DNA from: an uncultured Acidobacteriota bacterium
Lineage (GTDB): Bacteria; Acidobacteriota; Thermoanaerobaculia; UBA5066
Direction: 5' to 3'
Length of the DNA: 64,000 nucleotides
Assembly (NCBI GenBank): GCA_963779415.1
Contig: CAVZYA010000001.1
Span: 992,001 to 1,056,000 of the forward strand
In this document: piece by piece, positions 8,887 through 61,903 of the stretch
Position numbering within the stretch: position 1 is the stretch's first letter
Layout of the letters: every line of letters begins with the position of its first letter
The notes under the pieces: generated by a model
What the model was told of the DNA's origin: nothing
The model's database searches: none
The model's input: only the letters and a program-made list of their open reading frames with translations
Made by a program: the position numbers and the translations under genes

Positions 8887-11103
8887 TCATTCTCCTTCGG
8901 CATCTCGGGCGTTGAAGAACTTCTTGCCCGTGCGGGCGAGGTCTGAAAGGAGCGGGGCGGGGGCGAAGCGCGGCCCCTTCTCGGCCACGAGCTTCAGGAG
9001 CCCGTCGACGATCGCGCTCGCGCCGACCGAGTCGGCGTACGCGCAGAGCCCGCCGCGAAACGGCGGGAACCCGGTCCCGAAGATCATCGCGAGGTCAAGC
9101 TTCGCCGGGCTCTCGACGACTCCCTCGGCGAGGCAGAAGGCCGCCTCGTTCACCATCGGGAAGAGAAGACGTCGTTCGATCTCCGAAGAGGAGGGACTCC
9201 TGGAAGGCGAAGAAAGGCCCAGCTCGCCGTAGAGCGCGGGATCGGGGCCGCTCCGTTTCTCTCCCTCGTAGGAATAGAAGCCCTTTCCCGACTTGCGGCC
9301 GAGCCTCCTGGCGGCGACCATCTTCTCGAAGGCCGGGTCGATCGGCATCCGATCCGAAAAGGCGCCGGAGAGCGTTTCGGCTCCCTTCGTGGCCACGTCG
9401 ATCCCCACGTCGTCCAGGAGCTCGAAGGGGCCGACCGGCATGCCGAACGCGCGCATCGCCCTGTCGACGGCGGCCGGGTCGGCGCCTTCCAGAAGGAGCC
9501 GTACGGCCTCCCCCAGATAGGGCGCGAGAATCCGGTTCACGAGGAAGCCCGGGGCGTCCTTCACGACGACCGGTGTCTTCCCCATCCGCTTGGCGAGCTC
9601 GAAGATCGTGGCGGTGACCTCCGGGTCGGTCTTCGCCCCGTAGATCACCTCGACGAGCGGCATCTTGTGGACGGGATTGAAGAAGTGCATCCCGACGACT
9701 CGCTCCGGGTGCGCCGCATCCGCCGCGATCTGAGTGATCGGAAGCGTCGAGGTGTTGGAGGCGAAGATCGCCGAGGGGGGGACGACCGCTTCCCACTCCT
9801 TCAGCACGGCCTTCTTGACGGCCATCTTCTCGAGGACCGCCTCGATCGTGACGTCGCAGCTCTCGAAGCCGGCGTAGTCGAGCGACCCGGAGAGGAGGGA
9901 CATCTTCCCGGCGAACTCCGCGCGCGTCATCCGACGCTTCCGGAGCTTCTCCTTCCAGATCTTCGCGGCCTGGGCGTAGCCGCCGGCGAGGGGCTCGGGC
10001 CTGATGTCCTTCATCCGGGCCGGATGGCCCTTGTCCGCCGCGAGCTGGGCGATGCCGCCCCCCATGACACCCGCGCCGAGGACGCCGATCCTCCGAACGG
10101 GTCGCGGCTTGACGCCCTCACGAACGCCCGTCTCCTTCTTCACCTCTTCCATCCGGAAGAAGAGATTCACGAGGTTCCTCATCGTGGGAGTTCCGGCGAG
10201 CGCCAGGACCCCGGCGACCTCCTCCTCGAGCGCCTGCGCGAGCGGGGCGCCGAAGCCCTTCCGGATCGCCTCGAGCGCCGCGAGCGGAGCCGGATAGTGC
10301 CCCCGGGTCTCCTTGAGGACGGACGCCTTCGCCCTGGAGAAGACGATCCCCTTCCCGACGCCTTCGAGCAGCTTCTCCTGAAGCGTCGCGGCCCGCGCGC
10401 GGACCGGCCCACCGTCCGGGGCGGCGTTCGAGCGCTTGGGCGTTCCGAACTTTCCACGGGCGAACTTCTTTGCTTCCTCGAGGAGGATCGGCCGCGGGAC
10501 GACCTCGTCCACGAGGCCCATCCGCCGGGCGCGCTTTCCGTCGACGCTCTTCCCCGCGAGGATGATGTCGAGGGCCCCCGCCAGTCCGATGACGCGCGGG
10601 AGCCGCGAGCAGCCTCCCCACGCCGGCAGGATTCCGAGCCGGATCTCGGGAAGGCCGATCTGGGTCTTCTTCGAGTCGGACGCGAGGCGCCAGTCCATGG
10701 CGAGGGTCGTCTCGCACCCTCCTCCGAGGCAGGCGCCGTCGACGGCCGCGACCGTCGGGTAGGGGAGGCGCGCGAGCTTTCCGAAGACCTTCTGGCCGAA
10801 CCGGACTCCTTCGGCGACGAGGCTCGCCTCCGCTTTCGCGATCTCGTTCACGTCCGCCCCCGCGATGAAGATGTCGGGCTTGGACGAAACGAGGAGGAGC
10901 GCCTTGATCTCCGTCCGCTTCGCGAGGTCGTCGAGGAAGGCGTCGAACTCGCGGATGACGCCCGCCGAATACTTGTTCACTTTCTCGCCGGGCGTGTCGA
11001 AGAAGACGATTCCCAGCCCGTCGGGCTCGACCGCGAGCCGGAACGAGGGGCCGGCGGCATGGGGGGCGGCGGCCAGCTTCTCTTCGAGGAGCGTCGTCGA
11101 CAT
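8887..11103 (-). CDS. fadJ: Fatty acid oxidation complex alpha subunit (enoyl-CoA hydratase/3-hydroxyacyl-CoA dehydrogenase)
   Basis: FIAGAD, GACLGGGCE, GLPEIRLG, GAGVMGGGIA, SNTSTL, GMHFFNPV, GTGFPPFRGG. Confidence 0.92.
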   Translation of the reverse strand: MSTTLLEEKLAAAPHAAGPSFRLAVEPDGLGIVFFDTPGEKVNKYSAGVIREFDAFLDDLAKRTEIKALLLVSSKPDIFIAGADVNEIAKAEASLVAEGVRFGQKVFGKLARLPYPTVAAVDGACLGGGCETTLAMDWRLASDSKKTQIGLPEIRLGILPAWGGCSRLPRVIGLAGALDIILAGKSVDGKRARRMGLVDEVVPRPILLEEAKKFARGKFGTPKRSNAAPDGGPVRARAATLQEKLLEGVGKGIVFSRAKASVLKETRGHYPAPLAALEAIRKGFGAPLAQALEEEVAGVLALAGTPTMRNLVNLFFRMEEVKKETGVREGVKPRPVRRIGVLGAGVMGGGIAQLAADKGHPARMKDIRPEPLAGGYAQAAKIWKEKLRKRRMTRAEFAGKMSLLSGSLDYAGFESCDVTIEAVLEKMAVKKAVLKEWEAVVPPSAIFASNTSTLPITQIAADAAHPERVVGMHFFNPVHKMPLVEVIYGAKTDPEVTATIFELAKRMGKTPVVVKDAPGFLVNRILAPYLGEAVRLLLEGADPAAVDRAMRAFGMPVGPFELLDDVGIDVATKGAETLSGAFSDRMPIDPAFEKMVAARRLGRKSGKGFYSYEGEKRSGPDPALYGELGLSSPSRSPSSSEIERRLLFPMVNEAAFCLAEGVVESPAKLDLAMIFGTGFPPFRGGLCAYADSVGASAIVDGLLKLVAEKGPRFAPAPLLSDLARTGKKFFNARDAEGE

Positions 11104-11104
11104 G

Positions 11105-12361
11105 TCAGGCTTTCTCCAGAAGGATCGAGGCTCCCTGCCCTCCCCCGACGCAGAGCGTGGCGAGGCCGCGGGAGACGTTGCGGCGGCGCATCTCGAGGAG
11201 CAGCGTCAGGATGAGGCGCGTCCCCGAGGCGCCGACGGGGTGGCCGAGTGCGATGGCGCCGCCGTTCACGTTCAGGAGGCTCTCGTCGAGGGCGCCGAGG
11301 GCGGCATCCGTCTCGAACGCCCTGAGGTTCGCGAGAACCTGCGCCGCGAAGGCCTCGTTGATCTCGACGAGGCCGATCTCCTTCATCGTCCAGCCCGCCT
11401 TCCGGAGCGCGAAGGGCGTGGAGCGCGAGGGCCCGAGTCCCATCCGTTCCGGCTCGAGCCCGGCGAAGCCCCACCCCGCGATTCGGCCGAGCGGTTTCAG
11501 ACCTCTTTTCGTCACGAAGCTCTCGGAGGCGACGATGACGGCTGCCGCGCCGTCGGTGATCTGCGAGGAGTTGCCCGGGGTAACGCTCCCGTACTTCCGG
11601 TCGAAGAAGGGCTTCAGCCTCGCGAGCGCCTCCATCGTCTGGCCCTCGCGGATGCCGTTGTCGAGCATGGAGACCTTGTCGTAGTTCGGGGGGAGCGGCA
11701 CGGCCACCAGCTCCTCCGCGAGCCGCGCACGCCCCGCCGTCGCGCGCTGGTGCGACCGGAGGGCGAAGGCGTCCTGGCTTTCGCGGGTGATCCCCCCTTC
11801 CTTGGCGAGAATCTCGGCGGTCTCCCCCATGTTCAGGCCGCAGACGGGGTCCGTGAGCCCCTCCTTCAGGCCGATGACGGGGTTGAACAACTGGCCCCAC
11901 GGCATCTTCGTGAAAGCGCCGATCCGCTTCCCGGCGCTCTTCGCCGTCCCCGCCTTCGTGAAGACCGCCTTCACTCCGTCGCGGTAGAGGAACGGGATCT
12001 GCGACATGCTTTCGGTCCCGCCGGCGAGGACGACGTCGGCCTCTCCCGTCTGGATGAGCCGGGCCGCATGGACGACCGAATCGACGCCGGACGCGCAGTT
12101 GCGCGAGACCGAATACGCCGGACGCTCCTTCGGGACCCCGGCGCGAAGGGCGATGACACGGCCGATGTTGGCGGCGTCGACCGGCGTCGCGATGTTGCCG
12201 AAGATCGTCTGCTCGATGTCGGCCGGCTCGAGGCCGGCGCGCGCCATCGCTTCCACCGAGGCCGATCGCCCGAGGTCGACGGCGCTAACGTCCGAAAAGT
12301 CGGTGCCGGCCCGCGTGAACGGGGTGCGGGCGCCGTGGATGACGAAAGCGGAACGGGTCAT
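11105..12361 (-). CDS. fadI: 3-ketoacyl-CoA thiolase
   Basis: GARTPF, RNCASG, EINEAFA, GHPVGASG, LCVGGGQG. Confidence 0.9.
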   Translation of the reverse strand: MTRSAFVIHGARTPFTRAGTDFSDVSAVDLGRSASVEAMARAGLEPADIEQTIFGNIATPVDAANIGRVIALRAGVPKERPAYSVSRNCASGVDSVVHAARLIQTGEADVVLAGGTESMSQIPFLYRDGVKAVFTKAGTAKSAGKRIGAFTKMPWGQLFNPVIGLKEGLTDPVCGLNMGETAEILAKEGGITRESQDAFALRSHQRATAGRARLAEELVAVPLPPNYDKVSMLDNGIREGQTMEALARLKPFFDRKYGSVTPGNSSQITDGAAAVIVASESFVTKRGLKPLGRIAGWGFAGLEPERMGLGPSRSTPFALRKAGWTMKEIGLVEINEAFAAQVLANLRAFETDAALGALDESLLNVNGGAIALGHPVGASGTRLILTLLLEMRRRNVSRGLATLCVGGGQGASILLEKA

Positions 12362-13145: not shown

Positions 13146-13162
13146 CCGACCCCCTCGGCCCA

Positions 13163-13182
13163 CTGAATGAGCCGTCATTCAG
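13163..13182. promoter_or_regulatory. Palindromic operator CTGAATGA-N4-TCATTCAG (FadR-box-like)
   Basis: Perfect 8-bp inverted repeat directly upstream of the TetR gene, touching the -10 element. Confidence 0.85.
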
Positions 13183-13210
13183 CGTATGCCCCCACGGAGG
13201 CCGATGTCAA
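13181..13210 (-). promoter_or_regulatory. Sigma70-type promoter TTGACA-N18-TACGCT of the tetR-fad operon
   Basis: Consensus -35 at 13210-13205, TANNNT -10 at 13186-13181. Confidence 0.7.
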
Positions 13211-13257
13211 GGCCTCGGACGCTTCACCCCGGAGGGCGCGAGAGGGAAACCGGGCGC

Positions 13258-15891: not shown

Positions 15892-15942
15892 AACGGAATG
15901 CTCTTCGTAGAATGGGAAGAGCGCGGGGGGATTCTTCAGAAG

Positions 15943-21014: not shown

Positions 21015-21572
21015 CTAGGTTGTCTCGTCCGGGACGAGGCTGGCAAAGGCGGGCTCGTCGTGAAGGACCTGCTCGATCGAAAGGAGGAAGTCGTCGTCGG
21101 CCTGGTCGGCGGCCGGAACGCCCGCCGCCGTCGGCGTCGCCATCGCCTGCGGGGCCGGGGTCGGCACGGCACGCGATCCGAAACGGGCCACGGAGAGCCC
21201 CGCCATGAGAGCCACGGCGGCGGCGAGGCTCCCGAGGGCGAGGAACGGATGGCGGAAGAGACGCCGGCCCCGGACGGCCGCCGGGAACGGGAGGATGCCG
21301 CTCGTCACGGGACGCTCCGGCACCGCACGTCCCTCGACGGCCGCGAGAATGGCCGTTCGCTCGGATTCCCAGAACGACTCCGGAAGGCCGTCGACGAATC
21401 CGTCCACGGCGCCGCGGTCGAGAAGCCACGCCTCGCGAAGGCGCGCCACCTTCGCCTGGCACTCCTCGCAGCCGGCGAGGTGCTCCGGGACGGCGGAGGG
21501 CCGGTCGTCTCCGGGAAAGACCCGCGCGACGATTTCATCCGTGGTGAGGTGGCGATCCTCGGAGAGCTTCAT
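21015..21572 (-). CDS. Zinc-binding anti-sigma factor
   Basis: HLAGCEEC (HxxxCxxC), one TM helix, coupled to the ECF gene. Confidence 0.8.
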   Translation of the reverse strand: MKLSEDRHLTTDEIVARVFPGDDRPSAVPEHLAGCEECQAKVARLREAWLLDRGAVDGFVDGLPESFWESERTAILAAVEGRAVPERPVTSGILPFPAAVRGRRLFRHPFLALGSLAAAVALMAGLSVARFGSRAVPTPAPQAMATPTAAGVPAADQADDDFLLSIEQVLHDEPAFASLVPDETT

Positions 21573-22264
21573 CGGAGATCCTCCAGCCGCTCGCGCAGCT
21601 TCCGCGCCGCGCGGAAGAGGTGGGATTTGATCGTCCCCTCGTCCAGGCCGGTGGCCACGCCAATCTCCGCGATCGAGCGCTCCTCGTAATGCTTCATGAC
21701 GAAGACGGTCCGCTGGCGGGGCGAGAGGGCGACGAGCGCATCGGCGATCCGGCGTCGGATCTCGCGCGACATCAGGTCCCGCTCGGGAGACGTTCCGTCC
21801 GCAGGATCGAGGCGGTCCGGAATCTCCGGCCCGCCCTCCTCGTCGGCGCCCCGGAGATCGCTGAAGGAGACGACCGGCCGCCGCCGCCGGACGAGGTCGC
21901 GCACCGCGTTGATGGCGATCCGCGTCACCCAGGTCTCGAACGCGGCGCCGCCCTTGAAGTCCCGGAGCGCCCGGTAGGCCTTCACGAAGACGTCCTGCGT
22001 CAGCCCGTCCGCCTCCGCGGGATCACGGAGGAGCGTGTAGGCGAGCCGGTAGATCCGCTTCTGATACGTCCGGACGAAGTACTCGTAGCGGTCCGTCTCG
22101 CCCGCAAGGATTCTCTCGATCTCGGCCCGCTCGAGCTCCTGCCGCTCGGCGGCCGAATGGTCCGGGGCACGGTCTACCGGCTTCAACTCGGCCGCTCCGG
22201 TCCGGTTCCCGAACCGTGCCACGCCGGGAAAGCCGAAGACCTCCGCGAGACCTGTCGCACCCAT
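21569..22264 (-). CDS. ECF RNA polymerase sigma factor
   Basis: Region 2 (TQDVFVKAY...FETWVTRIAIN) and region 4 (LSPRQR...GTIKSHLFRA). Confidence 0.92.
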   Translation of the reverse strand: MGATGLAEVFGFPGVARFGNRTGAAELKPVDRAPDHSAAERQELERAEIERILAGETDRYEYFVRTYQKRIYRLAYTLLRDPAEADGLTQDVFVKAYRALRDFKGGAAFETWVTRIAINAVRDLVRRRRPVVSFSDLRGADEEGGPEIPDRLDPADGTSPERDLMSREIRRRIADALVALSPRQRTVFVMKHYEERSIAEIGVATGLDEGTIKSHLFRAARKLRERLEDLR

Positions 22265-22273: not shown

Positions 22274-22300
22274 GACGGTTCGAACACGCTGCCGGTTTAC
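22274..22300 (-). promoter_or_regulatory. Candidate ECF autoregulatory promoter GTAAAC-N17-CGTC
   Basis: AAC...CGT spacing typical of ECF promoters; ends 9 nt before the ATG at 22264. Confidence 0.55.
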
Positions 22301-22332
22301 CTTCTAAGACGCTCGGCTCCGGAAGGATAGCT

Positions 22333-23058
22333 TCAGACTTCCTCCCGCCGCTTCCAGGGCCGCAGCCACGCTTTCGAGTCGTCCCACAGCACGATCCGCT
22401 TCCGGAAGAGCGAGAGCGCCCACTCGACGCCGCCCGGCGAAGTTTCGGGCTCGAAGTAGCTCGAGAGAAGGAGCTTCCGGTCCTCGGGCCGGTTCAGACC
22501 GAGACGGGAGAGATCCCGAAGCCGGTTCCAGAGAGAGACCGGGCTCTCCCCAAGGCGTGCCCGGGTCAGGTCGACGAGCCAGATCGAGAAGCCCGCACCT
22601 TCGCGCGTGACGAGAACGTTTCCGTCAGAGAGGTCCCGGAAGAAGACGCCGGAGTCGTGCATCCTCCTCGCGAGCCGGCCGAGGGCCGCGAGCAGCGGTT
22701 CGAGGGGAATCCCGAGCCGCGGCTCGCCGCGTGCCGGATCGTCGCGCCGGAGGAACCACTCGCGGACCTGAACCGCCCCTTCGAGACGCCGGCTCACGTA
22801 CCAGCTCTCCCCACCCCGTCGGACGACGCCGAGCGGCTCGGGCGTCGGGATGCCGCGCGCGATCAGCTCCTTCGCCACCGAAGCGGAGCGCTCGGCGCGC
22901 GTCCGACCGGGCTTGTCGAAGAGGCTCGCCGGCGTCTTCTTGACGACCACCGGGATTCGGCCCTCGCTTCCAACCAGCGTCGCCTCCACCACCTCGTATC
23001 GCCCCGGATGGCGGACGGGGCTCTCGTCGAATTCGAGGTCCGATTCGCGGAGAATCAC
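22333..23058 (-). CDS. Lipopolysaccharide kinase (Kdo/WaaP/InaA family)
   Basis: GIPTPEP, MHDSGVFFRDLSDGNVL, LVDL; GTGA overlap with arnT-like gene. Confidence 0.8.
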   Translation of the reverse strand: MILRESDLEFDESPVRHPGRYEVVEATLVGSEGRIPVVVKKTPASLFDKPGRTRAERSASVAKELIARGIPTPEPLGVVRRGGESWYVSRRLEGAVQVREWFLRRDDPARGEPRLGIPLEPLLAALGRLARRMHDSGVFFRDLSDGNVLVTREGAGFSIWLVDLTRARLGESPVSLWNRLRDLSRLGLNRPEDRKLLLSSYFEPETSPGGVEWALSLFRKRIVLWDDSKAWLRPWKRREEV

Positions 23059-24689
23059 GGGAGCCCCATCAGGACGACCTTCCCCTGACCCACCGGCGAC
23101 CGGTCGACCACGACGAGAGACTTCAGAAGGGGATCCTCCCACCTTCCGAGATGATCCTCGGTCACGAGAACCATCCCCCGCGGCTCGGAGCGGAGCCAGG
23201 TCGCGAGCTCCTCCTCGCTCCTCGGGTGCGCGGTCTTCCGGCGGAGGACGAGAATGGGGTAGCAGCGGTAGGGATCCCCGTAATACGCGAGCGGCTCGCC
23301 ATGCGCGAACGAGGGCGCGATCCGTTCGTAGAAGGCGCGCCCCGTCTTCCTCGCGTCGACGGCGGGAAAGACTGCCGCCGCCACCGACGCCTCCCCGGCC
23401 GCCACCGCCGCCGCGAGGGCGAGGAGGACCGGGATCGCCTCGCGACGCCTCGCGAGCGCCACGGCCGCCACGCCGAGCCCTCCGATCGCGAGCGGGGCCG
23501 CGACCCACGGAGCGAGGCCGGCGTACGCCGGGAACCGGCCGGCCACCCGGGTCGGGAAGAGAGCTGCCGATGCGACGAGCAAGACGCCTACGAAGAGCGC
23601 GTAGCCCCGGAAGAGCCGGGCCCGGAGCGGGGAGCCGGAGACGCGCGCCTCGCGATCCGCGGCCCCCGCCGCGGCGGCGAGAAGGACCGCCGCGAACGGG
23701 TAGGCCATCAGGAGGTACTTACCCTGCTTCGCCTGCGAGATCGAGAGGAAGACGAACGAGGTGGCGAAGACCGCCGCGGCGAGCCGCAGCTCCGACCGCT
23801 CGCGGAAGAGCCCGGCGCGCGCCGCGACGAACGGAGCCGCGAGTGCGGGAAGCGTCCAGGGCTCGAAGTCGATGGAGATCGACTCGAAATAGAACCACCA
23901 GGGCTGGATGTGGTCGAAGGCTCGGAAAAAGCGGTTCCAGTTCTGGTTGACGACGAGGTCGTACGCATACTCCCGCCCGCCGTGGAGCGAGGCCGCCACG
24001 TACCACGGGACGACGAGGAGGCCGACGACGAGCGCTCCGCGGGCCGGGGCGAGGTCGAGAAGCGGGCGGGCCGATCGCGCCCGCACGCATTCCACGACGA
24101 CGACGAGACCGAGAAGGACGAGCGTGAGCGGACCCTTGGCGAGGATCCCCGCCGCGATCAAGAGGTGCAGCGCCGTCCGCCACCGCCCCGCGCGCTTCGG
24201 GTCGTTCCAGACGCCCCACTCGGCGACGTATCCCCAGACGACGAGCGCCGAGAAGAGCGCGTCGATCTGAAGGAACTGTCCCTGCCACCAGACGACCGGC
24301 ACCGTGGCCGTCACCGCCCCCGCGAGGAGCGCTTCGCTCCGGCTCCCGCGTCGCCCGGCGAGCCACGCGGAGGCGAAGACGATTGCCCCCGCGGCCAAAG
24401 CCGACGGCAGGCGCGTGGCGGCGGGGTGGACGTCTCCCCCCGAGAGAAGCGTCGTGGCGGCGATCGCCCAGTAGAAGAGCGGCGGCTTTTCCGAGTAGGG
24501 GACGCCGTTCTGGTACGGGATCAGGAGGTCCCGGCGCTCGAGCATCTCGCGTGTCTGCTCGGCGAAATCGGGCTCGTCCGGCGCCCAGAAGTCGCGCCAC
24601 GCCCCGGCGAGGAAGAAGAGCGCCGCCGCGGCGAGGGCGAGGGCCAGGGGGACGCGGGAGCGGGCCGAGCCCGCCGTCGGGTCGATCAA
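23055..24689 (-). CDS. ArnT/PMT-family membrane glycosyltransferase
   Basis: APDEPDF, EKPPLFYW, RLPSA, LAKGP, HIQPWWFY, KQGKYLL; start (TTG) approximate. Confidence 0.85.
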   Translation of the reverse strand: MIDPTAGSARSRVPLALALAAAALFFLAGAWRDFWAPDEPDFAEQTREMLERRDLLIPYQNGVPYSEKPPLFYWAIAATTLLSGGDVHPAATRLPSALAAGAIVFASAWLAGRRGSRSEALLAGAVTATVPVVWWQGQFLQIDALFSALVVWGYVAEWGVWNDPKRAGRWRTALHLLIAAGILAKGPLTLVLLGLVVVVECVRARSARPLLDLAPARGALVVGLLVVPWYVAASLHGGREYAYDLVVNQNWNRFFRAFDHIQPWWFYFESISIDFEPWTLPALAAPFVAARAGLFRERSELRLAAAVFATSFVFLSISQAKQGKYLLMAYPFAAVLLAAAAGAADREARVSGSPLRARLFRGYALFVGVLLVASAALFPTRVAGRFPAYAGLAPWVAAPLAIGGLGVAAVALARRREAIPVLLALAAAVAAGEASVAAAVFPAVDARKTGRAFYERIAPSFAHGEPLAYYGDPYRCYPILVLRRKTAHPRSEEELATWLRSEPRGMVLVTEDHLGRWEDPLLKSLVVVDRSPVGQGKVVLMGLP

Positions 24690-46899: not shown

Positions 46900-49855
46900 T
46901 CAGCGCGCGGCGGGGCCCATCGTGCGGTCGAGCCAGGCGTTCACGGCGGGTACGAGGACCTCGGCGGGCGGAATGTGCCCGCCGTCGAGAGCTGAAGGTG
47001 CTTCGGCTCGGAGAGGAGCTTGAACAAAGGCTCGGCTTCGGTCTTGAACGCGAAGTCTTCGTCCCAGCGGCCGTTCAGCATGAGCTTCGGCGGGCGGACG
47101 TGCGGCGCGAAGTTCACCGGGTTTGCCTCGGCGATCCACTTCGCCTGGTCCGGATAGACGCCGTCCGCGACGAAGACGACGCTCCGGTAGCGCGACTCCA
47201 CCGCGGCGAAGATGATCCCCTGCCAGCTGATGCTGGCGTTCATGAACGCGATGCGGGATCCGTCGACGTCCTTCCGCGTCAGGAGGTAGTCGACGCCCCG
47301 CCGGATGTCGACGGACTCCGCGACCGCCCTCTGCCGGAACGCGACCGAGTCCCCGTCGGGACGCCGATACCCATTGGGCCACTCGCGACCGGGATAGCCC
47401 GGAAGGTCCACGACGAAGATCGCCCGTCCGGCTTTCACGAGCGGAGCGATCGGTCGCTCTCGACGACCGTGCTCACGGCCGTCCCCGAGTAGACGATCGA
47501 TGAGAGGACGAAATGGATCACCTGGTAAGGAGGCCGCGCGTTCTTCGGGAGGTAGAGCCACCCGCCGATGCGCGCCCCTCCCGCCCCGGCGAAGGTCACG
47601 CGTTCGCGCGTCCAGTCGGGCGTCTCGACCCGCTCCTCCACCCTCCCCTCGGGCAGCACGCGGTCGTAACGGTAGTGCGCGAGCCACGCTTCGAACTGCG
47701 CGCGGCTCGACCGCAGGTACGTCGGAGCCTGCTCGGCGCGCGAGATCGGTGCGTCGCCCTCTTCTCCCGCCGAACCGGGTACCGCGAGCGCGCATCGGAG
47801 GCCCAGGCGTTCCGAGCTCGCGAGTCCGGGGTAGATCCCGTAGTCGCCGAAGACGTACGACGGGTCCGTGAAGGCGCCTCCCGCCGTCACACGGCCGTCC
47901 GGTGCGGCGTTGCGCGTCCACTCGGAGACATTGCCCGCCATGTGGTAGCAGCCGTATGGGCTCATCCCCGCCGCGCCCCGCCGCACGGGGACAGTGCCCT
48001 TGCCGTCGAAGTTGGCGCGCGGGTCCGCGCCGCGCTCGAGGCCCCACGGCATCACGGTATCTCCGGTGAACACGAAAACGCCGTCGCGCGCCGCCTTCTC
48101 CCACTGGAAGATCGTCGGAGATTCTTCCCGCGGAAGCGCGCGTAGGCATTCGCTTCGTACCACGACACGCCCGTCACCGGATGGTCGGCCACCCTTGGGG
48201 AAGGTCCCCCCCGTCCAGCTCGCGCCGCTCGGCGGCCCCGAGAGGTCCACGAGCCCGCGGACCCCTCCTCCCCCCGAGGGCGCGGCCGCGTCCTCGAACG
48301 GCTGCGTCGAGAGATCGCGAACCGATATCCGCCCGGCGCGACGAAGCCGGCGTAGTCACGGTTGCTCACCTCGTACCGGTCGATAAAGTACTCGCGCAGT
48401 GGGACGCGAGCGGCGGTAGGCTGACGGCAGCCGACGAGCTTGCACCCCCTCCGGCACGACGCGATGTCGGCCGGAGCCGGTCCCCGCCTTTCGCAGAGTC
48501 CACGTCACGGAAATCGCCGTCTTGAAGTCGTTTGGATTCGACCGGGCGAGGGGTCGAGGTGTTCGCTCGAAGCGTACCCCTCCCGGCCGAGAAGCGGGGC
48601 GAAGTCGCGGCGGCAGTCGCCGCGTCCTTCAGAGGCGTAAGGCCCAGATCCTGCGGCGCACCCGGCTCGGCCCCCTGCGCCGCCTCGTACCGCCGGAGGT
48701 AGACGCGCGCACCGGGCGGGTCCGTGGTGACGAAAGTACGTCCGTGACCTCAGGGAGGAGGACAGCGAGCTTGGCGTCACGGGGAGTTAGCCGCGTCCGC
48801 GCGGGCTGAGGTCGAACGCTTCGGCCGACCGGCCCAGGTCGCGAGACAGGCGGCGGAGGACGGCCTCCTCGGCCCAGCGGGGCGCGAGTGCCGCAGCCAG
48901 AGCAGCGCCCCCGCTTGGCGGCGGCGACGACAAGCGCGAGGAGCGCGAAACGCGCGGGGCGGGAGAGCGTCAGGCCGCCTCCGCGCACGAGCCGCGACCG
49001 GAAGCCGAGCTCGCCCCGCGCCGATTCGAGCGCGGCGGCCATGGGAGCGGTCTCCCAGCGCTCCTCCGGCGCCTTGCGGAGCGCGCGGCGGACGATCGCC
49101 TCCGTCTCCGCCGGAACGCTCCCGACCTCGGGGCGGAGCGCCGGCGGCTCCGTGGTCAGGATGCGCGAGGCCGTCTCGGCCACGCTCGGTGCGTCGAAGG
49201 GACGGCGGCCCGCGAGGAGCTCGTAGAGGAGCGACGCCGAGCGAGAAGACGTCGCTGCCGGGCGTCGACGCCGGCTCGCCGCGGCGCTGCTCGGGCGACA
49301 TGTAAGGGACCGTCCCGAGGACGAGGCCGCCGGTGCGTGAGGGCGGCCCGCAGGTCGGCGCCTCGGCCCCGGCCGCCGCCCAGGGAACCTTCGCGAGGCC
49401 GAAGTCGAGGAGCTTCACCAGGCCGTCGCGCGCCGACGAAGACGTTCTCGGGCTTGACGTCGCGGTGGACGATGCCTTTCGCATGCGCCGCCGCGAGCCC
49501 GCGCGCCGACCTGCGCGGCCGTGTCGAGGGCCTCCCGCGGCGGCACTCTTCCGTGCCGGAGTCGCTCGCGCAGGGTCGCCCCCCGAGCAGCTCGTCGACG
49601 ACGTACAATCGGGCCTTCACGCCCCACGTCGTAGACGGCGGCGATGATCGGGAGGTTGAGCGCCGCCGCGTCGCGGGCCTCGGCTCGAAGCGCTCGAGCC
49701 GCTCGGCGTCTCCCGATACATCGTCCGGGAGAACTTGAGCGCGACCTCGCGGCCGAGGCGCGGGTCCCGGGCGCGGTACACGACACCATCCCGCCCGCGC
49801 CGAGAACCGTAACGATCTCGTACGGCCCCAGCTTTGAGCCCACCGAAAGCGGCAC
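46900..49855 (-). CDS. Ser/Thr kinase + FGE-sulfatase + alpha/beta-hydrolase fusion (many frameshifts)
   Basis: Fragments [39 protein letters not shown]; [23 protein letters not shown]; [10 protein letters not shown]. Confidence 0.75.
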
Positions 49856-49887
49856 GCCGGACAGATTATAGGCCGCAGGCCGGGTCG

Positions 49888-51174
49888 TCAGAACGGGGGC
49901 GTCTGCCGGGCCTGCAGCTCCGCGACGCGTGGCGGCGGCGAAGGAGGGCGAGCCGTCCCTTCCGGACCCCGACCTCGGCCGGCCACTCGTGCGACAGAAA
50001 GAGCGGCATCGACTCGGTGAAGCCATACGCTCCGGCTTTCTCGAAGGCGAGAAGGTCTCCGCGCGAAGGGAGCGGGAGGCGGGCGGACGCGGTGGAGGAC
50101 GTCGAGAGAGGTACAGAGGGGACCGGAGACGACCAGGGGTTTCCTAGAAGGTGAAGACGGTCGCGGGCGCCGGCCGTCTTCTTCCGGGACGAGCCTCACG
50201 CGGTGGGGCGTCCCGATGAGGACGGGGCGGAGGAAGTGGTGGATCCCTCCGTCGACGAGAACGTACTCCGCGCCGCGGCTCCGCTTCGTTCCGAGAACTC
50301 TGACGACGTACGTGCCGCTCTCGGCCACGAGAAATCGCCCGGGCTCGAAGACGAGGCGGGTCGACTCGGGAAGGCCGTTCGCGCGCGCCTCCCTGGCAAC
50401 CGCTCTCAGCCCCTTTCTCAGAACTCCGAGGTCGAGCGGGCTTCTCGCCATCGGCGTACGGGACGCCGAAGCCTCCGCCGAAATCGACGGAACGGAGGGG
50501 GACCGAGAATCTCTTCGAAAGCGAGAGAGCCAGAGAGAGGACGCGCCCGGTGTTTTCGACGAACAGCTCCGCGTCGAGGACGTTCGAGGCGTTGAAGACC
50601 TGAAACGCGCAGAGGTCGAGATGCGGGAAGGCCCCCCGGTCTCTCTTCAGTTCGAAGAACTCTCGCGGCGCTCGCGAGGTCGAAGCCGAACTTCCCGGCG
50701 CCCGGCCCCCCGATGATGACCCGCTTCTCCGCGATCCCCCAGGGGGGATTCAGCCGGAGGCCGACCTTCACGCGGCGCCGAAGTCGCCGCGCGACCTGCT
50801 CCAGCGCCTCCAGCTCCCACTCCCCTTCGGCATGGATGATCGACACCCCGGCACGGACGAGCGCCCCAAGATCGGCTTCGCTCTTCGCCGGGCCCGTGGA
50901 GAGGATCTTCGAAGCGGGAAATCCGGCCCGGCGAGCGGCCAGCAGCTCGCCCCGGGATGCGACGTCCGAAGAGAGACCGAATCTGCTCAGAAAGGAAAGG
51001 AACGCCGAGAGAAGGGTTCGCCTTGACCGCGTACGCAATCTCGAAGCGGCGGCCGACAGCGTGTTTGAGACGAGCGACCTGTCTCTCAATGACTTCGAAA
51101 TCGTAGAGATAAAACGGCGTCCCGAAACGCTCCGCCGCAAGACGGAGAAGGCGGGCAGGGGGAAGTTCATTCAT
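49888..51174 (-). CDS. lysA: Diaminopimelate decarboxylase family (many frameshifts)
   Basis: TPFYLYD, YAVKANP, VASRGE, TGPAK, GKFG, EPGRFLVAESG, GPLCT; last gene of the dap operon. Confidence 0.8.
50141..50189. repeat. Inverted pair of the dispersed motif inside lysA
   Basis: TTCCTAGAAGGTGAAGACGG...CCGTCTTC---TTCCGGGA hairpin. Confidence 0.6.
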
Positions 51175-51997: not shown

Positions 51998-52932
51998 GGC
52001 GCTCCCTCCGTCGGCTTCCCGTCGGCGTCGAGGAGCCCGGCGATCCGGAGCGCTTCCTCCATCGCCGCATGATGCGACGCCGAGAGCGCGACGAGCGGAA
52101 GCCGGAGCGCCCCGCCGCAGACGCCGAGGCGCTTCATCGCCCACTTGACCGGGATCGGGTTCGACTCGCGGAAGTTCGCGCGCATGAGCGGGAAGAGCTT
52201 CGCCTGGAGGGCGGCCGCACGGCCGCGGTCGCCCGCGAGCCCGGCCGCGACGAGCTCGGACGTCGAGCGGGGCGCCTCGTTCGACACGACGGCGATCAGG
52301 CCGTCGGCCCCGCACGCGATCATCGGGAGGGCGAGCGAGTCTTCGCCCGAAAGGACGGCGAAACCGGCGGGTCGGGAGCGGAGGATCTCGCAGGCCTGGT
52401 CGAGGCTGAGCGAGGCTTCCTTCACGGCGGAGAAGCGCGGGTCCTCGGCGAGCGCGAGAACGGTCTCAGCGAGCATGTTCACCCCCGTCCGCCCCGGTAC
52501 GTTGTAGAGGACGATCGAAAGCTCTCCCGCGTCGGCCACCGCGCGGAAGTGCTCGATCAGCCCCTTCTGTGTCGGCTTGTTGTAGTAGGGGGTCACGACG
52601 AGAAGAGCGTCCGCGCCCGCCTTTGCGCACCGCTTCGCGAGCCTCTGCGCTTTCTTCGTGTCGTTCGACCCGCACCCGGCGATGACGCGGACGGGGCGGG
52701 GCGCGCGGCGCGCTTCGTCGGCCACGACGGCCACGACCCGCTCGTGCTCGTCCGGGTCGAGCGTGACCGCTTCGCCCGTCGTTCCGCACGGGACGAGCCC
52801 CTGGACGCCCCCCTCGATCTGGCGTCGGACCAGCCTCCGGAGGGCGAACTCGTCCACCTCCCCCGCTTCCGTGAAGGGCGTGATGAGTGCCGTGAAGGTG
52901 CCGGAGAGTCTCGAGGCCGGCGTCGTCGTCAT
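51994..52932 (-). CDS. dapA: 4-hydroxy-tetrahydrodipicolinate synthase
   Basis: TALITPF, GTTGE, PYYNKP, YNVPGRT, KEAS, NPIPVK. Confidence 0.97.
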   Translation of the reverse strand: MTTTPASRLSGTFTALITPFTEAGEVDEFALRRLVRRQIEGGVQGLVPCGTTGEAVTLDPDEHERVVAVVADEARRAPRPVRVIAGCGSNDTKKAQRLAKRCAKAGADALLVVTPYYNKPTQKGLIEHFRAVADAGELSIVLYNVPGRTGVNMLAETVLALAEDPRFSAVKEASLSLDQACEILRSRPAGFAVLSGEDSLALPMIACGADGLIAVVSNEAPRSTSELVAAGLAGDRGRAAALQAKLFPLMRANFRESNPIPVKWAMKRLGVCGGALRLPLVALSASHHAAMEEALRIAGLLDADGKPTEGAP

Positions 52933-53717
52933 GGCGTTCCCCCTCTGGAGATCGAATCGAGAAACTCGTCGAAGGTGACGGGGCCGGTCCGTCCGCTCGC
53001 GAGGAGCCACTCGGCCGCGGCGACGGCGCCCGACGCGAAGATCGCCCGTGAGCGGGCGCGGTGGACGATCTCGAGGCTCTCCGACTCTCCTTCGAAGAAG
53101 AGGACGTGCTCGCCCGGCTGTCCCCCCTGCCGGAGCGCCACGACGGGGACGGCCGACCCCGGCCGGACCGATTCGACGGCCGCCGCGATCAGCTTCGCCG
53201 TCCCCGAGGGCGCGTCCTTCTTCGCGGAGTGATGCCGTTCGAGGATCCCCGGCTCGAAACCGGTAAACGGCCCAAAGAGCGCCGCCGCGCCGGCGGCGAG
53301 CCGCTTCATCACCGCGACGCCAATCGAAAAATTCGGAGAATGAAGAAAGGGAGTTCCGTTCCGCCTCGAGACCTCGATCACACGAGATACGTCCCAGCCG
53401 GTCGTACCGGAGACGACCGGGATCTGCTTAGAAAGAAGAGAGACGACGAGGGCTTCCGCCGAAGCCGGAGTCGTGAACTCGAAAGCTACATCCACCGCCG
53501 CCGGATTCTTTGAAGGTGAACTCCGGCGACGCCCCTTGCCTGCTGCTGCACGCCGACCTGAATCGGACGATGCCGGCGACCTGCCCGATTCACCTTCTAA
53601 GAAAATCTCCGGTGGGTCTCCCTCGTCGATCTTTCCCGCGAGGACGTGACCGCGCGCGGCGAGCGCCGCCTCGATCGCCTTTCCCATCTTCCCGTAGCCG
53701 ACGATCAGCGCCCTCAT
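52929..53717 (-). CDS. dapB: 4-hydroxy-tetrahydrodipicolinate reductase with a roughly 30-aa insertion
   Basis: GYGKMG, GTTGW, NFSIG, ERHHSAKKDAPSGTA, FASGA. Confidence 0.95.
   Translation of the reverse strand: MRALIVGYGKMGKAIEAALAARGHVLAGKIDEGDPPEIFLEGESGRSPASSDSGRRAAAGKGRRRSSPSKNPAAVDVAFEFTTPASAEALVVSLLSKQIPVVSGTTGWDVSRVIEVSRRNGTPFLHSPNFSIGVAVMKRLAAGAAALFGPFTGFEPGILERHHSAKKDAPSGTAKLIAAAVESVRPGSAVPVVALRQGGQPGEHVLFFEGESESLEIVHRARSRAIFASGAVAAAEWLLASGRTGPVTFDEFLDSISRGGTP
53506..53603. repeat. Element bounded by 15-bp inverted repeats, in frame in dapB
   Basis: TTCTTTGAAGGTGAA (53506-53520) and TTCACCTTCTAAGAA (53589-53603), 14/15 complementary. Confidence 0.75.
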
Positions 53718-55087
53718 GCCGCGCCCCCTTCGAAGAAGTCCCGGTGAAGCCGCCGGAGCGCCTCGGGGCCGTCCTTCGCGTCGACGACGAAAGTGATGTT
53801 CGTCTCCGAGGCTCCCTGCGAGATCAGGACGACGTTGACGTCCCGAAGCGCCGCGAAGACCCGCGCCGCCACGCCCGGCGTCGTCCGGAGCCCCTTCCCG
53901 ACGACGGAGACGACCGCGAGGTTCCGGAGGATCGAAACCTCCGCGAACTCCGAGAGGCTCGCCGCGAGGAGGTCGAGGGGCGCCTTCTCGTCGACCGTGA
54001 TCGAGATCGAGACCTCGCTCGTCGCGATGACGTCGACCGGGACCCGGTGCTTCTCGAAGACGGTAAAGACGCGGGCGGCGTATCCATGGGCGAAGAGCAT
54101 CCGCGGGCTCCCGACGAAGAGGGCCGCCACCCCTTTCCGCATCGCGACGGCGCGGACACCGTGCCCCGGAGCGTCGGCCTTGACGACCGTTCCGGCCACT
54201 TGCGGACGGAAGGTGTTTCGGACGGCCACGGGGATCCCGCGCGCGACGGCCGGACGGATCGCGGCCGGATGGAGGACCTTCGCTCCGAAAAAGGAGAGCT
54301 CGGCCGCCTCGGCATAGCCCACCTCGGGGACGAGCCGCGCCGCCGGGACGATTCGCGGGTCGGCCGTCAGAATGCCGTCCACGTCGGTCCAGATCTCGAT
54401 GACAGGAACGTTCGCACCGGCGTCTGCGAGGGCCGCGCCGAGAAGCGCCGCCGAGTAGTCCGACCCGCCGCGCCCGAGCGTCGTCGTGGAGCCGTCGGGC
54501 GCCTCGCCGAGAAACCCGCCCGTCACGACGACCTTTCCGGCGGAGAGCTCGGGAAGGGCCGCCGCGCCGACACGCCGGCCCGTCTCCGCCTCGTCGGGGA
54601 CTGCGCCCCCGTACGTCGCGTCCGTGGCGACGAGGCGCCGCGGATCGACCCAGACGGCCGGGACGCCGCGGGCGCGAAGGGCCGCGGCGACGAGGCGCGA
54701 GGAGATCAGCTCGCCCATGCTCAGGATCGCATCCGAGGTCCGAAGAGAGACTTCTTCGAGAAGGGAGATCCCCAGCGAGAGCTCGCGGACACGGCCCATC
54801 TCCCGCTCGAGGGCGTCACCGCACTCCCGAGCGTCCGCCCGGGGAAGCGCGAGAAAGTCGAGCGCGGCGCGGTGGCGGGCGCCAAGGACGTCGACGGCGG
54901 ACTCGGCCGACTCCCGGTCCTTCGCCTTCGAAGCACTCTTCAGGGTCTCCAACTGATCCGTGACCCCCCCCATCGCCGAGACGACGACGAGGGGCTGCTC
55001 GCCCCGGCGGGACGCGACGAGGTCGGCGACGCGGCCGATCCGCTCGCCGTCGCCGACGGAAGTTCCCCCGAATTTCAATACGATCAT
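53714..55087 (-). CDS. lysC: Aspartate kinase (AKIII-like)
   Basis: KFGGTSV, VVSAMGG, TLGRGGSDYSA, WTDVDG, FGAKVLHP, two ACT domains. Confidence 0.96.
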   Translation of the reverse strand: MIVLKFGGTSVGDGERIGRVADLVASRRGEQPLVVVSAMGGVTDQLETLKSASKAKDRESAESAVDVLGARHRAALDFLALPRADARECGDALEREMGRVRELSLGISLLEEVSLRTSDAILSMGELISSRLVAAALRARGVPAVWVDPRRLVATDATYGGAVPDEAETGRRVGAAALPELSAGKVVVTGGFLGEAPDGSTTTLGRGGSDYSAALLGAALADAGANVPVIEIWTDVDGILTADPRIVPAARLVPEVGYAEAAELSFFGAKVLHPAAIRPAVARGIPVAVRNTFRPQVAGTVVKADAPGHGVRAVAMRKGVAALFVGSPRMLFAHGYAARVFTVFEKHRVPVDVIATSEVSISITVDEKAPLDLLAASLSEFAEVSILRNLAVVSVVGKGLRTTPGVAARVFAALRDVNVVLISQGASETNITFVVDAKDGPEALRRLHRDFFEGGAA

Positions 55088-56185: not shown

Positions 56186-56210
56186 AAAAAGCCCGCCGTC
56201 TCCGGCGGGC
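56186..56210 (-). terminator. Intrinsic terminator (attenuator) upstream of asd
   Basis: GCCCGCCG-GAGA-CGGCGGGC followed by TTTTT on the minus strand. Confidence 0.85.
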
Positions 56211-56247
56211 CTGGTTGAATCGGTTTCCTCTCCTGACCTTGAGCCTT

Positions 56248-56328
56248 CTAGAGGACCTCTTCCCCGGCCGCCGTCGGCGTCGTCTTTCGAATCGTCGTCC
56301 GCTTTCGGGTGGCGAGGGGCGGAATCAT
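56248..56328 (-). CDS. Leader peptide MIPPLATRKRTTIRKTTPTAAGEEVL
   Basis: 26-aa ORF (6 Thr, 2 Ile, 2 Lys) between promoter and terminator. Confidence 0.75.
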   Translation of the reverse strand: MIPPLATRKRTTIRKTTPTAAGEEVL

Positions 56329-56337
56329 TGGCGCAAA

Positions 56338-56366
56338 AGCCTAGGGACAACGTCTCCCGGTGTCAA
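56338..56366 (-). promoter_or_regulatory. Sigma70 promoter TTGACA-N17-TAGGCT of the lysine operon
   Basis: Consensus -35, 17-nt spacer, -10 ends 9 nt before the leader ATG. Confidence 0.8.
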
Positions 56367-56421
56367 GCCGGACGCGCCGCGGTCCATAATCCGCTCCCCG
56401 CCTTCGCGGGCCTCTCCGACG

Positions 56422-58427: not shown

Positions 58428-58436
58428 AGAGGTCCC

Positions 58437-59891: not shown

Positions 59892-60583
59892 CGCGGCCGA
59901 TCGAGGTCGTCTCTCTTCTCTCCGAGGGCCGCGTCGCGTACGACGCGGCCCTTCGGCTTCAGCGCGAGGCCGAGGCGCGGGTCCTCGCCGGCGGTCAGGA
60001 AAGCCTCTTTCTCCTCTCGCACGAGGACGTCATCACGATCGGCCGGAACGCGGGCCGGAAAGACCTTCTCGTCTCCGAGGGCTTTCTCGCGGAGAGGGGG
60101 ATCGCCCTGTGCGAGTCGGACCGGGGCGGGAAGCTGACGTTTCACGGCCCCGGCCAGCTCGTGGCCTACCCTGTCATGAACCTCGTCCCGGACCGGACCG
60201 ACGTCCGGCGGTACGTTCACGACCTCGAGGAGACCCTGATCCGGACCGCGGCCGACTTCGGTGTCACCGCCGGGCGCAGTGCCCTTCCCGGACGCTGGTC
60301 CTCCGTCTGGGTCGGGAACGACAAGCTCGCCGCGATCGGTGTCCATCTCTCCCGGTGGGTCACGACGCACGGCGCCGCCCTGAACGTCTCGACCGACCTC
60401 TCGCGCTTCGGGCTGATCGTCCCCTGCGGCATCCCGGACGGAGGCGTCACGTCCCTCGAGCGTCTCCTCGCGCCGAAGCCGGCGCCGTCGCTCTCCGAGG
60501 TCGCCACGCGTTTCGTGGCCCGCTTCGCCGAGGTCTTCGACCGGACGCCGGTGGAACCCGGAGGGCCGGTGTCCGCCTCCTAG
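59888..60583 (+). CDS. lipB: Octanoyltransferase
   Basis: DRGGKLTFHGPGQLVAYP, KLAAIG, HGAALN, IVPCG; start uncertain (CTG overlapping E2 stop). Confidence 0.9.
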   Translation: MTRPIEVVSLLSEGRVAYDAALRLQREAEARVLAGGQESLFLLSHEDVITIGRNAGRKDLLVSEGFLAERGIALCESDRGGKLTFHGPGQLVAYPVMNLVPDRTDVRRYVHDLEETLIRTAADFGVTAGRSALPGRWSSVWVGNDKLAAIGVHLSRWVTTHGAALNVSTDLSRFGLIVPCGIPDGGVTSLERLLAPKPAPSLSEVATRFVARFAEVFDRTPVEPGGPVSAS

Positions 60584-60924
60584 GCTTTGTCCGGGGCCGC
60601 CGCCCCCCTCGAGAAGGCCGCCTCGAACTCCTTGTAGGCCGCCCGGATCTCGGGACGCGCGGGCTTCTCCGCGACGAGGTAGTGGAGGAACGTGCTCTTC
60701 CTCGGGGTCACTTTCGACTTCACCTTCGTATCCATCAGGGCGTCTAGCAGCGCCTCACCCACACCCCTCACGGTTCGGGGATCCGCCGCTCCCCCGGAGC
60801 GGAGCGCTTCCAGAACTTCGTGGGCTTTCTTCGCTCCGTCTCCCCCGAATGGCTTCAGGATCCGCGCGGCTTCCTCCGCCGCCTTGAGCCGCCGCACCGT
60901 GCCGCGGTCATCGGTCTCTCCCAT
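60580..60924 (-). CDS. Hypothetical protein (114 aa)
   Basis: Coding-like helical ORF filling the lipB-lipA gap. Confidence 0.6.
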   Translation of the reverse strand: MGETDDRGTVRRLKAAEEAARILKPFGGDGAKKAHEVLEALRSGGAADPRTVRGVGEALLDALMDTKVKSKVTPRKSTFLHYLVAEKPARPEIRAAYKEFEAAFSRGAAAPDKA

Positions 60925-60991
60925 ACGGTGTCCAAGTATGGCTCCCGTCGGCCCCGGACACCAGCGCCGGCCGCGCGGCTAGACTCCCCCC

Positions 60992-61903
60992 GTGAGCACG
61001 AAGCTCCCCTCGTTCCAGCCGAATCCGGACCGGCCGCTCTACCGCGTCACCCCCCGGCCGGAATGGCTGAAGATCCGGATCGAGGAGACCGGAGATTACC
61101 GGGAGGTCCGGGAGCTTCTCGCGAAGAGGAAGCTCAACACCGTCTGCGAGGAAGCCGAGTGCCCGAACCTCTTCGAGTGCTGGGGACGCGAGCGGACGGC
61201 GACGTTTCTGCTCATGGGGGACGTCTGCACCCGGCATTGCGGCTTCTGTGCGGTGACCCAGGGGAGCGGGCGTCCGCTCGACCCCGACGAGCCGCGGCGC
61301 GTGGCCGACGCCGTCCAGGCGATGGGGGTCCGCCACGCCGTCGTCACCTCGGTGAACCGGGACGAGCTTCCGGACGGGGGCGCCGCGCACTTTGCCGCCA
61401 CGATCCGGGAGATCCGCGCCCGAGTCCCCGGGGTCACCGTCGAGGCGCTGATCCCCGATTTCCTCGGGAGCGAGGCGGCGCTGAAGACGGTTCTCGACGA
61501 ACGCCCCGAGGTGCTGAACCACAATCTCGAGACGGTCGAGCGGCTCTACCGCCGCGTCCGCCCGGACGCGGTCTACGCGCGGTCGCTGGAGCTGCTGCGC
61601 CGGGCGGCCGAGAGGGGAGACGAAGAGGAGAATTCCTTGAAAGTGAAGAGCGGCTTGATGGTCGGCCTCGGCGAGTCGAGGGACGAAATCGAGGCGACGC
61701 TGTGCGACCTCCAGGCCTCGGGCGTTGATGTCGTGACGATCGGCCAGTATCTCCAGCCGCACGCCCGCCGCCTGCCGATCGAGCGGTACGTCACGCCGGA
61801 GGAGTTCCGGGAGCTGAAGGAGTTCGGGGAGGGGATCGGAATCCGCCTCGTGGAGTCAGGCCCGCTGGTCAGGTCGAGTTACCACGCCCGAAGGGCGCTT
61901 TGA
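60992..61903 (+). CDS. lipA: Lipoyl synthase
   Basis: [33 protein letters not shown]. Confidence 0.97.

Follow-up and report, generated by a model that had tools for sequence, protein, structure and literature searches.

An AT-rich motif in convergent inverted pairs across housekeeping genes of two Thermoanaerobaculia genera, and its possible role as a stem-loop signal in transcripts

Several described kinds of dispersed bacterial repeat invite comparison with the element reported here, an AT-rich motif of ~24 bp (consensus about GAGATTTCTTAGAAGGTGAAGAG) that recurs more than 100 times in a very GC-rich soil bacterium. The motif was studied from a window of 64,000 nucleotides (67-74% GC), the whole stretch of DNA analysed, which comes from an uncultured bacterium of the Acidobacteriota, class Thermoanaerobaculia (contig CAVZYA010000001.1, positions 992,001 to 1,056,000); we label the 4.36-Mb, three-contig assembly G000, its contigs C1 to C3, and the window C1:992001-1056000. 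REPINs, which are hairpin-forming doublets of repetitive extragenic palindromic sequences, are described in passages of PMC3116915 as inverted doublets with a spacer, extragenic and associated with a RAYT gene, with 71 bp between the conserved 16-mers of GI REPINs. The uptake signal sequences (USS) of Pasteurellaceae and the DNA uptake sequences (DUS) of Neisseriaceae are dispersed motifs that substitution has brought into several frames of coding regions, at tolerant positions, and that related taxa have in common (PMC2817400). Rickettsia palindromic elements (RPEs) are palindrome-like repeats inserted and translated in frame in unrelated metabolic genes (PMC10969869). The highly iterated palindrome HIP1 of cyanobacteria (GCGATCGC) is over-represented and conserved both inside open reading frames (ORFs) and in the stretches that separate them, which implies selection at the nucleotide level, and has been linked to chromosome structure, according to PMC5861425.

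The present element resembles REPINs in that two conserved sequences of ~20-25 nt stand inverted at a preferred spacing, that doublets are over-represented relative to singlets, and that a hairpin is predicted in single-stranded DNA or messenger RNA (mRNA); its arm starts lie ~71-76 bp apart, close to the spacing of the GI REPINs. REPINs are copied as whole units, spacer included, whereas the spacers here are unique or consist of native protein sequence, 102 of 135 copies lie inside genes, and genes of the Y1_Tnp family neither track nor flank the motif. With uptake sequences it shares dispersal, entry into coding regions by substitution and presence in related taxa; it differs in being about twice as long and apparently far less dense, in standing mostly as convergent pairs of ~100 bp, and, in G000, in a bias towards the transcript strand. 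The in-frame inserts of dapB and alr treated below recall RPEs. RPEs, however, are ~150-bp insertions encoding a conserved peptide, whereas the interior here is not conserved, most pairs overlay native sequence with no insertion, and the arms are read in six frames. HIP1 shares the evidence of nucleotide-level selection, but is an 8-bp perfect palindrome that stands unpaired and reaches more than one copy per gene, while ours, at 24 bp, is asymmetric, occurs in pairs and is ~100-fold rarer. In a literature search that left supplementary files aside, no description of the motif was found, and the papers in which the 11-mer strings occur have them as human sequence or as primers unrelated to it. 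We regard the motif as real, and no described element that we found in the literature explains it.

The consensus is laid out roughly as GAGAT-TTCTTAGAA-GGTGAAGAG, with a palindromic core TTCT-N-AGAA. Alignment of 51 genomic copies of TCTTAGAA[AG]G showed conservation over ~24 bp, with a weak upstream RGAT(T/C)T, a purine-rich tail and nothing farther out. These copies served to build a position weight matrix (PWM), a 24-bp table of per-position scores, and are themselves counted within the real matches; since an iterated matrix drifted to poly-A low complexity, the seed matrix was kept. At a score of at least 20 there were 135 matches in the real genome (strong copies), 9 in reversed sequence and a mean of 0.6 in five codon-shuffled genomes, in which codons were permuted inside called genes so that codon usage and amino-acid content were preserved. 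At a score of at least 18 the corresponding numbers were 170, 21 and 2.2, and at 16 or above the shuffles lead one to expect 7.4 matches per genome. When up to three mismatches are allowed, the window contains six copies of the 17-mer TTCYTAGAAGGTGAAGA (9197, 15904, 50141, 53506, 53587-53603 on the minus strand, and 61633) against 0.07 expected, a count that none of 100 shuffles reached; genome-wide it has 91 matches, 7 of them exact and 10, 22 and 52 with one, two and three mismatches. A sequence-only reading of the window had reported a dispersed AT-rich motif of ~17 bp and proposed comparison with codon-preserving shuffles; the motif withstood that comparison and proved both longer and, with 135 copies genome-wide, more widespread than reported. 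Strong copies occur about once per 32 kb in a patchy distribution that leaves stretches of 200-250 kb without any.

The copies are arranged in pairs, a feature that had escaped the sequence-only reading. Within 400 bp of each other, G000 holds 56 convergent, 6 divergent and 16 tandem pairs, and a convergent partner is present for 75 of the 135 strong copies. Total pair length ranges from 66 to 323 bp and is mostly about 95-105 bp. The geometry recurs in the related genome G024: of 30 exact arms, 23 are partnered convergently and none divergently, and 12 of the 23 pairs span 90-104 bp. Purine runs lie upstream of the arms in G024, and pyrimidine runs lie downstream of them. An origin of the pairs by foldback, as quasi-palindromes, was rejected, as arm-to-arm similarity is not in excess overall; by eye, a few pairs of the insert type have non-consensus bases in common.

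Several observations place the signal at the nucleotide rather than the protein level, as the sequence-only reading had supposed. The strong copies comprise 33 intergenic ones and 102 in called genes (53 sense, 49 antisense), with all six frames in use; because called genes cover 85% of the genome, the intergenic enrichment is less than 2-fold. Of the 33 intergenic copies, 24 have A as the centre base of TTCT-N-AGAA. In the two frames in which an A there would create TAG or TAA, the base is instead C, in 14 of 16 copies for one frame and in 16 of 16 for the other. Likewise, in the frame where GGTGA would yield TGA, the tail is altered to AGGAAG or GGGGAA. These switches by frame indicate that the DNA motif is primary and that the reading frame is accommodated around it. 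Rare codons, such as those of CTT-CTA-AGA, are maintained at orthologous sites in two genera (CTA and AGA account for 0.59 and 2.6 per thousand codons in the training set of the gene caller). At 22 alignable sites in a 275-kb block syntenic with the congener G003, 16 show no gap of 6 nt or more, and at these G003 encodes the same peptide with GC-richer synonymous codons; VEEILRRGR, for example, is encoded with ATT CTT AGA AGG GGA AGA here and GTT CTC CGA AAG GGA CGG in G003.

A role as a Shine-Dalgarno sequence was considered and rejected, since an ATG or GTG 5-10 nt past GGTGA, followed by an ORF of at least 100 codons, accompanies only 2 of the 135 strong copies. One pair of G024 (C8:862400-864200, positions 640-790) does straddle the start of an acyl-CoA synthetase-like gene; the GGTGA of its 5' arm lies 7 nt upstream of the ATG and its 3' arm ~30 codons inside the gene, so that the stem would enclose the start codon.

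The motif is limited to two Thermoanaerobaculia genera. In a tally of the 15-mer with up to one mismatch, its distribution was as follows:

Own genus (g1): motif in 7 of 7 genomes, 2-30 copies per genome
Second genus of the same family (g4): motif in 4 of 4 genomes, 73-196 copies per genome
The other 16 genera searched: 0-1 copies per genome

The tally includes one unpublished genome, G025, which adds a single one-mismatch match among the other genera and on which no claim depends. The hisA pair stands at the same position in all 10 aligned genomes of both genera, with CCTTCT invariant and the next AAG nearly so, and the hisD pair and the dapB arms likewise occupy orthologous positions common to both. 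The motif is therefore older than the split of the genera and has been maintained or lost lineage by lineage. Match quality differs by species and is poor in G003, which has three copies of the 15-mer. Directly outside the 3' arm of hisA (alignment columns 120-160), in-frame expansions of a pyrimidine run (TCTTCCTCTTC..., 20-40 nt) occur in G004 and G002 of g1 and in G019, G024 and G010 of g4, where they give Ser/Leu/Pro-rich inserts in HisA; the other five aligned genomes, including G022 of g4, have none. These expansions suggest replication slippage beside the motif.

We propose that the pairs form a lineage-specific family of sequence-specific stem-loop signals that act in transcripts, having been written in by substitution and being read by a lineage-specific factor, and we would put the probability of this reading at roughly 0.4. 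It draws on the enrichment, frame behaviour, pairing, origin by substitution and conservation of the motif and, at the RNA level, on predicted hairpins and two asymmetries. First, among 35 in-gene pairs (kinase paralogues dropped), arm mismatches give more G·U pairs on the sense strand in 24 and on the antisense strand in 7, with 4 ties (sign-flip p=0.0013). This bias tracks the sense strand, being 17:4 in genes with a G-rich sense strand and 7:3 in those with a C-rich one; it is weaker in the replication frame (28:15, p=0.07) and absent from solo arms (0.48 vs 0.61 for paired arms). Secondly, the sense-minus-antisense folding energy averages -4.8 kcal/mol, compared with -1.6 in control segments of the same genes (p=0.033). 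The sense-strand wobble and the folding asymmetry together favor a function in mRNA. The predicted hairpins have z-scores of -2.9 to -4.5 in five of seven folds.

Each unit consists of two inverted AT-rich copies of ~24 nt facing each other, in spacers and mostly inside housekeeping genes, with a total span that is usually 90-105 bp and can reach ~300 bp. Substitution creates and keeps such units, rare codons and some amino-acid changes included, and now and then a short in-frame insertion adds an arm and a GC-rich spacer. In the transcript, pairing of the purine-rich 5' arm with the 3' arm, which is rich in pyrimidines, would produce an AU-rich stem, an unusual structure at 68% GC, and a trans-acting factor, for instance an RNase III-like double-strand-specific ribonuclease or an RNA-binding protein, may recognise this stem by sequence and thereby set the processing or stability of the transcript. 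It is possible, though on the doubtful side, that the ORFs of hisA, hisD, dapB, lysA, alr, rnr and hem genes in the two genera carry a genome-wide stem-loop code of this kind, in which one trans-acting factor would read some hundred hairpins in the mRNAs of each genome, the number being larger in g4, with selection overriding codon usage and sometimes protein sequence since before the genera split. If so, a nucleic-acid signal would have been imposed on essential coding sequence throughout a genome by substitution alone and would have outlasted a genus. Two overlapping codes, one for protein and one for an RNA or DNA signal, would then clearly be under joint selection, and the dispersed repeat would be of a new kind, which pairs as REPINs do and evolves as uptake sequences do. 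For this uncultured acidobacteriotal class, the motif also offers a concrete handle with which to seek a factor that binds RNA or DNA.

However, the proposal of a transcript signal should be interpreted with caution, since a number of results weigh against it. In G024 the wobble bias did not recur (5 vs 4 pairs with 7 ties, among 16 in-gene pairs), a sample that is small, partly overlapping and selected for near-perfect arms, and the folding-energy difference there, -1.8, equals the G000 control. Watson-Crick pairs form at 504 of 864 arm positions, sense-strand G·U contributing ~13% more, and loops extend up to ~250 nt. As many as 60 of the 135 strong copies lack a partner scoring at least 14. 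Arm covariation is absent, with 685 identical positions against 686 when partners are shuffled, and in the hisA alignment none of 16 arm base pairs is changed on both sides, so that no compensation is seen; each arm is therefore held to the common consensus, which fits recognition by sequence. In Rfam, the window at the gathering threshold matched two tRNAs and no family for the motif; seven loci that bear the element, compared at E<=1, matched a plant microRNA model and the gyrA RNA, both below threshold, and nothing else. Among sequencing runs searched for the locus, no RNA run was listed, and the best match was a DNA run present as contigs only, with a share of 0.11 of its words. No factor that reads the stem was identified. 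The gene calls, moreover, come from our own crude codon-usage caller, and the assembly appears to have frameshifts.

A separate observation concerns the 16S ribosomal RNA (rRNA), encoded at G000:C1:1283300-1286000 (497-2052, minus strand). Its 3' end, GGATCACCTCCTTTCTAAGGG, resembles the pyrimidine strand of the motif, CTTCACCTTCTAAGAAA, once CCT is taken out of it; 8 of 9 positions of the purine arm AGAAGGTGA can pair with the anti-Shine-Dalgarno sequence, and the variants CTTAGAAAGG are exact complements of CCTTTCTAAG. The leader and spacer of the 16S gene (~2240-2290 and 390-440 in the minus-strand reading) form the usual long processing stem, GGTTCCTTGAAAACTGAACGGAGAC / GTCTCCGTTCAGTTTTCAGGGAACC, whose 5' arm matches the motif by eye at ~14 of 24 positions with the polarity of the pairs. 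The likeness to the 16S 3' end could be chance, or could reflect a link to the ribosome or to rRNA processing.

A strong rival, albeit one that we consider rather unlikely, holds that the pairs are double-stranded DNA sites. They would serve a lineage-specific protein, for instance a nucleoid-organising factor, recombinase or domesticated transposase, that requires two sites placed head to head, and selection would keep these sites wherever they fall, genes not excepted, as it keeps matS, Noc and SlmA sites and HIP1. A long, asymmetric motif with a palindromic core is typical of protein sites, and the lack of covariation between arms that each keep to one consensus is what such a site would show. 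Consistent with it too are the equal frequency of the motif on both strands, its similar density on the three contigs (25-43 per Mb), the persistence of solo copies, and the origin of copies by substitution with conservation at orthologous positions; HIP1 provides the precedent. The sense-strand wobble bias and the folding asymmetry of G000 would, however, be unexpected for double-stranded DNA. Nor does pair spacing show helical phasing (best period 11.8 bp, p=0.26; R=0.05 at 10.5 bp; p=0.14-0.98 across tests), and no candidate protein was found.

Less probable, indeed improbable in our estimate, is an uptake sequence or self-recognition tag that accumulates by mutation together with biased uptake and recombination (molecular drive), like USS and DUS. 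Spread by substitution through all coding frames, over-representation on both strands, tolerance where constraint is weak, orthologous sites common to related genera and the patchy distribution along the genome would all suit such a tag; these properties match those that PMC2817400 describes for uptake sequences, and G024 encodes a ComEA-like protein. Drive, however, predicts neither convergent pairs at a preferred spacing nor a transcript-strand bias. The density also appears low, with 135 strong copies in G000 and 73-196 15-mers with up to one mismatch in the g4 genomes, against the 765-1,892 uptake sequences per genome listed in PMC2817400. Known uptake cores are about half as long as the motif, which we count against the uptake explanation. 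Both uptake sequences and chromosome-organising sites, which the sequence-only reading had named, are possible analogies for the motif.

The remaining alternatives concern mobile DNA. In the window, the copies at a PWM score of at least 14, together with the dapB ORF, its arm B and its in-frame stretch, are the following:

52929..53717, minus strand: dapB ORF (4-hydroxy-tetrahydrodipicolinate reductase), which holds arms A, B and C
53585..53608, minus strand: arm A of dapB, PWM 36.2, the best copy in the window; AGATTTTCTTAGAAGGTGAATCGG; read as EIFLEGES; the 5' arm of the dapB mRNA
53501..53524, plus strand: arm B of dapB, the inverted partner of arm A; TTCTTTGAAGGTGAA; read as SSPSKN; one mismatch in the 15-mer
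53499..53600, minus strand: in-frame stretch of dapB, ~102 bp (33-34 residues), comprising most of arm A, a GC-rich spacer and arm B
53420..53443, plus strand: arm C of dapB, PWM 27.3; GGATCTGCTTAGAAAGAAGAGAGA; on native LLSKQIPVVSGTTG with no insertion, colinear in all DapB alignments
53081..53104, minus strand: weak dapB copy, PWM 17.2, close to the PWM noise level
53327-53350, plus strand: PWM match, score 15.8
53719-53742, minus strand: PWM match, score 15.1
50136..50159, plus strand: lysA arm, PWM 25.4; GGGGTTTCCTAGAAGGTGAAGACG; read as SSPSRK on the minus strand
50506..50529, plus strand: weaker arm in the N-terminal part of lysA, PWM 20.2; ORF 50418-51170 (minus strand) with an Orn_Arg_deC_N domain
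50979..51002, plus strand: weaker arm in the N-terminal part of lysA, PWM 22.6
22292..22315, minus strand: intergenic copy, PWM 21.7, between an ECF sigma factor gene (21569-22264, minus strand) and a Kdo-family kinase gene (22333-23508, minus strand)
61628..61651, plus strand: copy in the radical SAM (LipA-like) gene 60992-61903 (plus strand; Pfam Radical_SAM), PWM 18.2, in sense orientation
15899..15922, plus strand: weak copy among ORFs with no Pfam family at E<=1e-5, PWM 18.4

Arm B, the copy at 53506, falls below 14 because one T is missing. Among the positions given by the sequence-only reading, 50141, 53603-53589, 53506, 22310, 61633 and 15904 stood, and 9197, 15932, 23121-23150 and 38107 found no support at a PWM score of at least 14. 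The copy at 9197, placed in a FadJ-like gene, has three mismatches in the 17-mer and scores under 14; the one at 22310 is intergenic and does not fall inside a protein, and the DUF2232 protein assigned near 15900 gains no backing from Pfam at the threshold given above.

A decayed non-autonomous mobile element inserting in frame, such as a miniature inverted-repeat transposable element (MITE), an RPE or an element of the REPIN type, would have the arms as its terminal inverted repeats. We regard this as unlikely too, and the related suggestion of the sequence-only reading, that the motif is the end of a miniature mobile element, found no support. In its favor, the convergent arms look like such repeats, the usual length is about 96-100 bp, the motif is limited to one lineage with a copy number from 2 to 196, the doublet spacing recalls REPINs, RPEs offer a precedent for in-frame entry, and real in-frame insertions exist. 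The dapB insert (FLEGE...SSPSKN, 33-34 residues) is missing in the G001 and G005 orthologues (query positions 351-452), present and diverged in G002, G003 and G004, and lacking both from PDB homologues, which align to query 4-34 and 75-252 only, and from two distant relatives. In alr, one arm brings a 6-residue in-frame insertion, and in hisD of G022, 29 extra residues consist of a new arm and spacer. Relative to orthologues, then, an insertion is seen in dapB and, over 6 residues, in alr, and none is seen in hisA, hisD or 16 of 22 sites aligned to G003. The lysA arm at 50136..50159, for its part, is nearly colinear with the G003 orthologue (one 1-nt and one 6-nt gap), which reads SSPSKR in GC-richer codons.

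The interiors speak against mobility. When the 56 pair interiors were compared by BLAST with the genome and with each other, matches occurred only among kinase paralogues and nested copies, and at 30 G024 loci no common interior sequence was seen by eye. The HisA and HisD pairs, arms included, are colinear with solved PDB homologues and so are native protein sequence. With interiors that are unique, and native in HisA and HisD, the pair is not a MITE. The 42 in-gene pairs share no fixed length class modulo 3 (12/17/13), inspection by eye showed no target-site duplication at the dapB empty site or in the flanks, and no distant inverted pair encloses a single, transposase-like ORF; no full-length element was found. 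The intragenic position of most copies also contrasts with the extragenic REPINs.

Transposase genes offer no better fit. DDE_Tnp_1 (PF01609) is absent from all five genomes searched, and the number of Y1_Tnp matches (4 in G000, 3 in G003, 2 in G007, 1 in G024 and 0 in G019) is uncorrelated with motif counts, G019 having 159 motif copies with no Y1_Tnp match and G003 three of each. The Y1_Tnp (IS200-like) domains of G000 lie at C2:1647136, C1:1391112, C2:1274029 and C2:1690907 in ORFs of ~320 residues, and similar genes occur in G003 and G007; two of these four loci were examined and show no flanking inverted repeats. A viral source was rejected, as the 43 exact 17-mer matches in IMG/VR all fall on contigs of 28-55% GC, none with a paired element. 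The units arise and persist mainly by nucleotide substitution, with occasional short in-frame inserts, and are not mobile. For annotation, the low-complexity inserts (FLEGE...SSPSKK) and rare-codon patches of these genomes should be taken neither as errors nor as scars of mobile elements. That the pairs are intragenic invertons, recombination sites at which an invertase flips the enclosed segment, is hardly credible even though identical inverted repeats flank short segments at many loci, since the host genes are essential housekeeping genes and simulated inversion leaves 18 of 42 genes open against 58% of 2000 control draws, so that recoding by inversion is rejected.

Some minor observations concern the kinases, lysA and the assembly. 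Copies reading TTCTTCGAAAGTGAAGA elsewhere in the genome, and some that read TTCTTCGAA, fall in a family of Ser/Thr kinase paralogues, and were left out of some pair statistics, as stated there. In the cluster of these paralogues (G000 C1:943000-978000, and C1:376000) a motif-like pair of 112 bp lies over native VLP..F(F/L)ESE...IYSFEEI, and the G003 orthologues of the clustered kinases carry GC-richer versions of it. The lysA gene (49415-51170, minus strand) is split over at least two frames, with Orn_Arg_deC_N in 50418-51170, and the ORF that follows, 49888-50451, runs out of frame beyond ...GPLCTSLDVL; the start of a downstream Ser/Thr kinase (LGAGGM...) also looks frameshifted. These frame breaks are either assembly indel errors or pseudogenes. 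Across the genome, few copies lie in C1:550-750 kb, C1:1350-1450 kb and C2:200-450 kb. The cumulative GC skew changes direction near C1 450 kb, C1 2.05 Mb and C2 400 kb and is monotonic through C3; C1, C2 and C3 may be parts of a single chromosome and not separate replicons.

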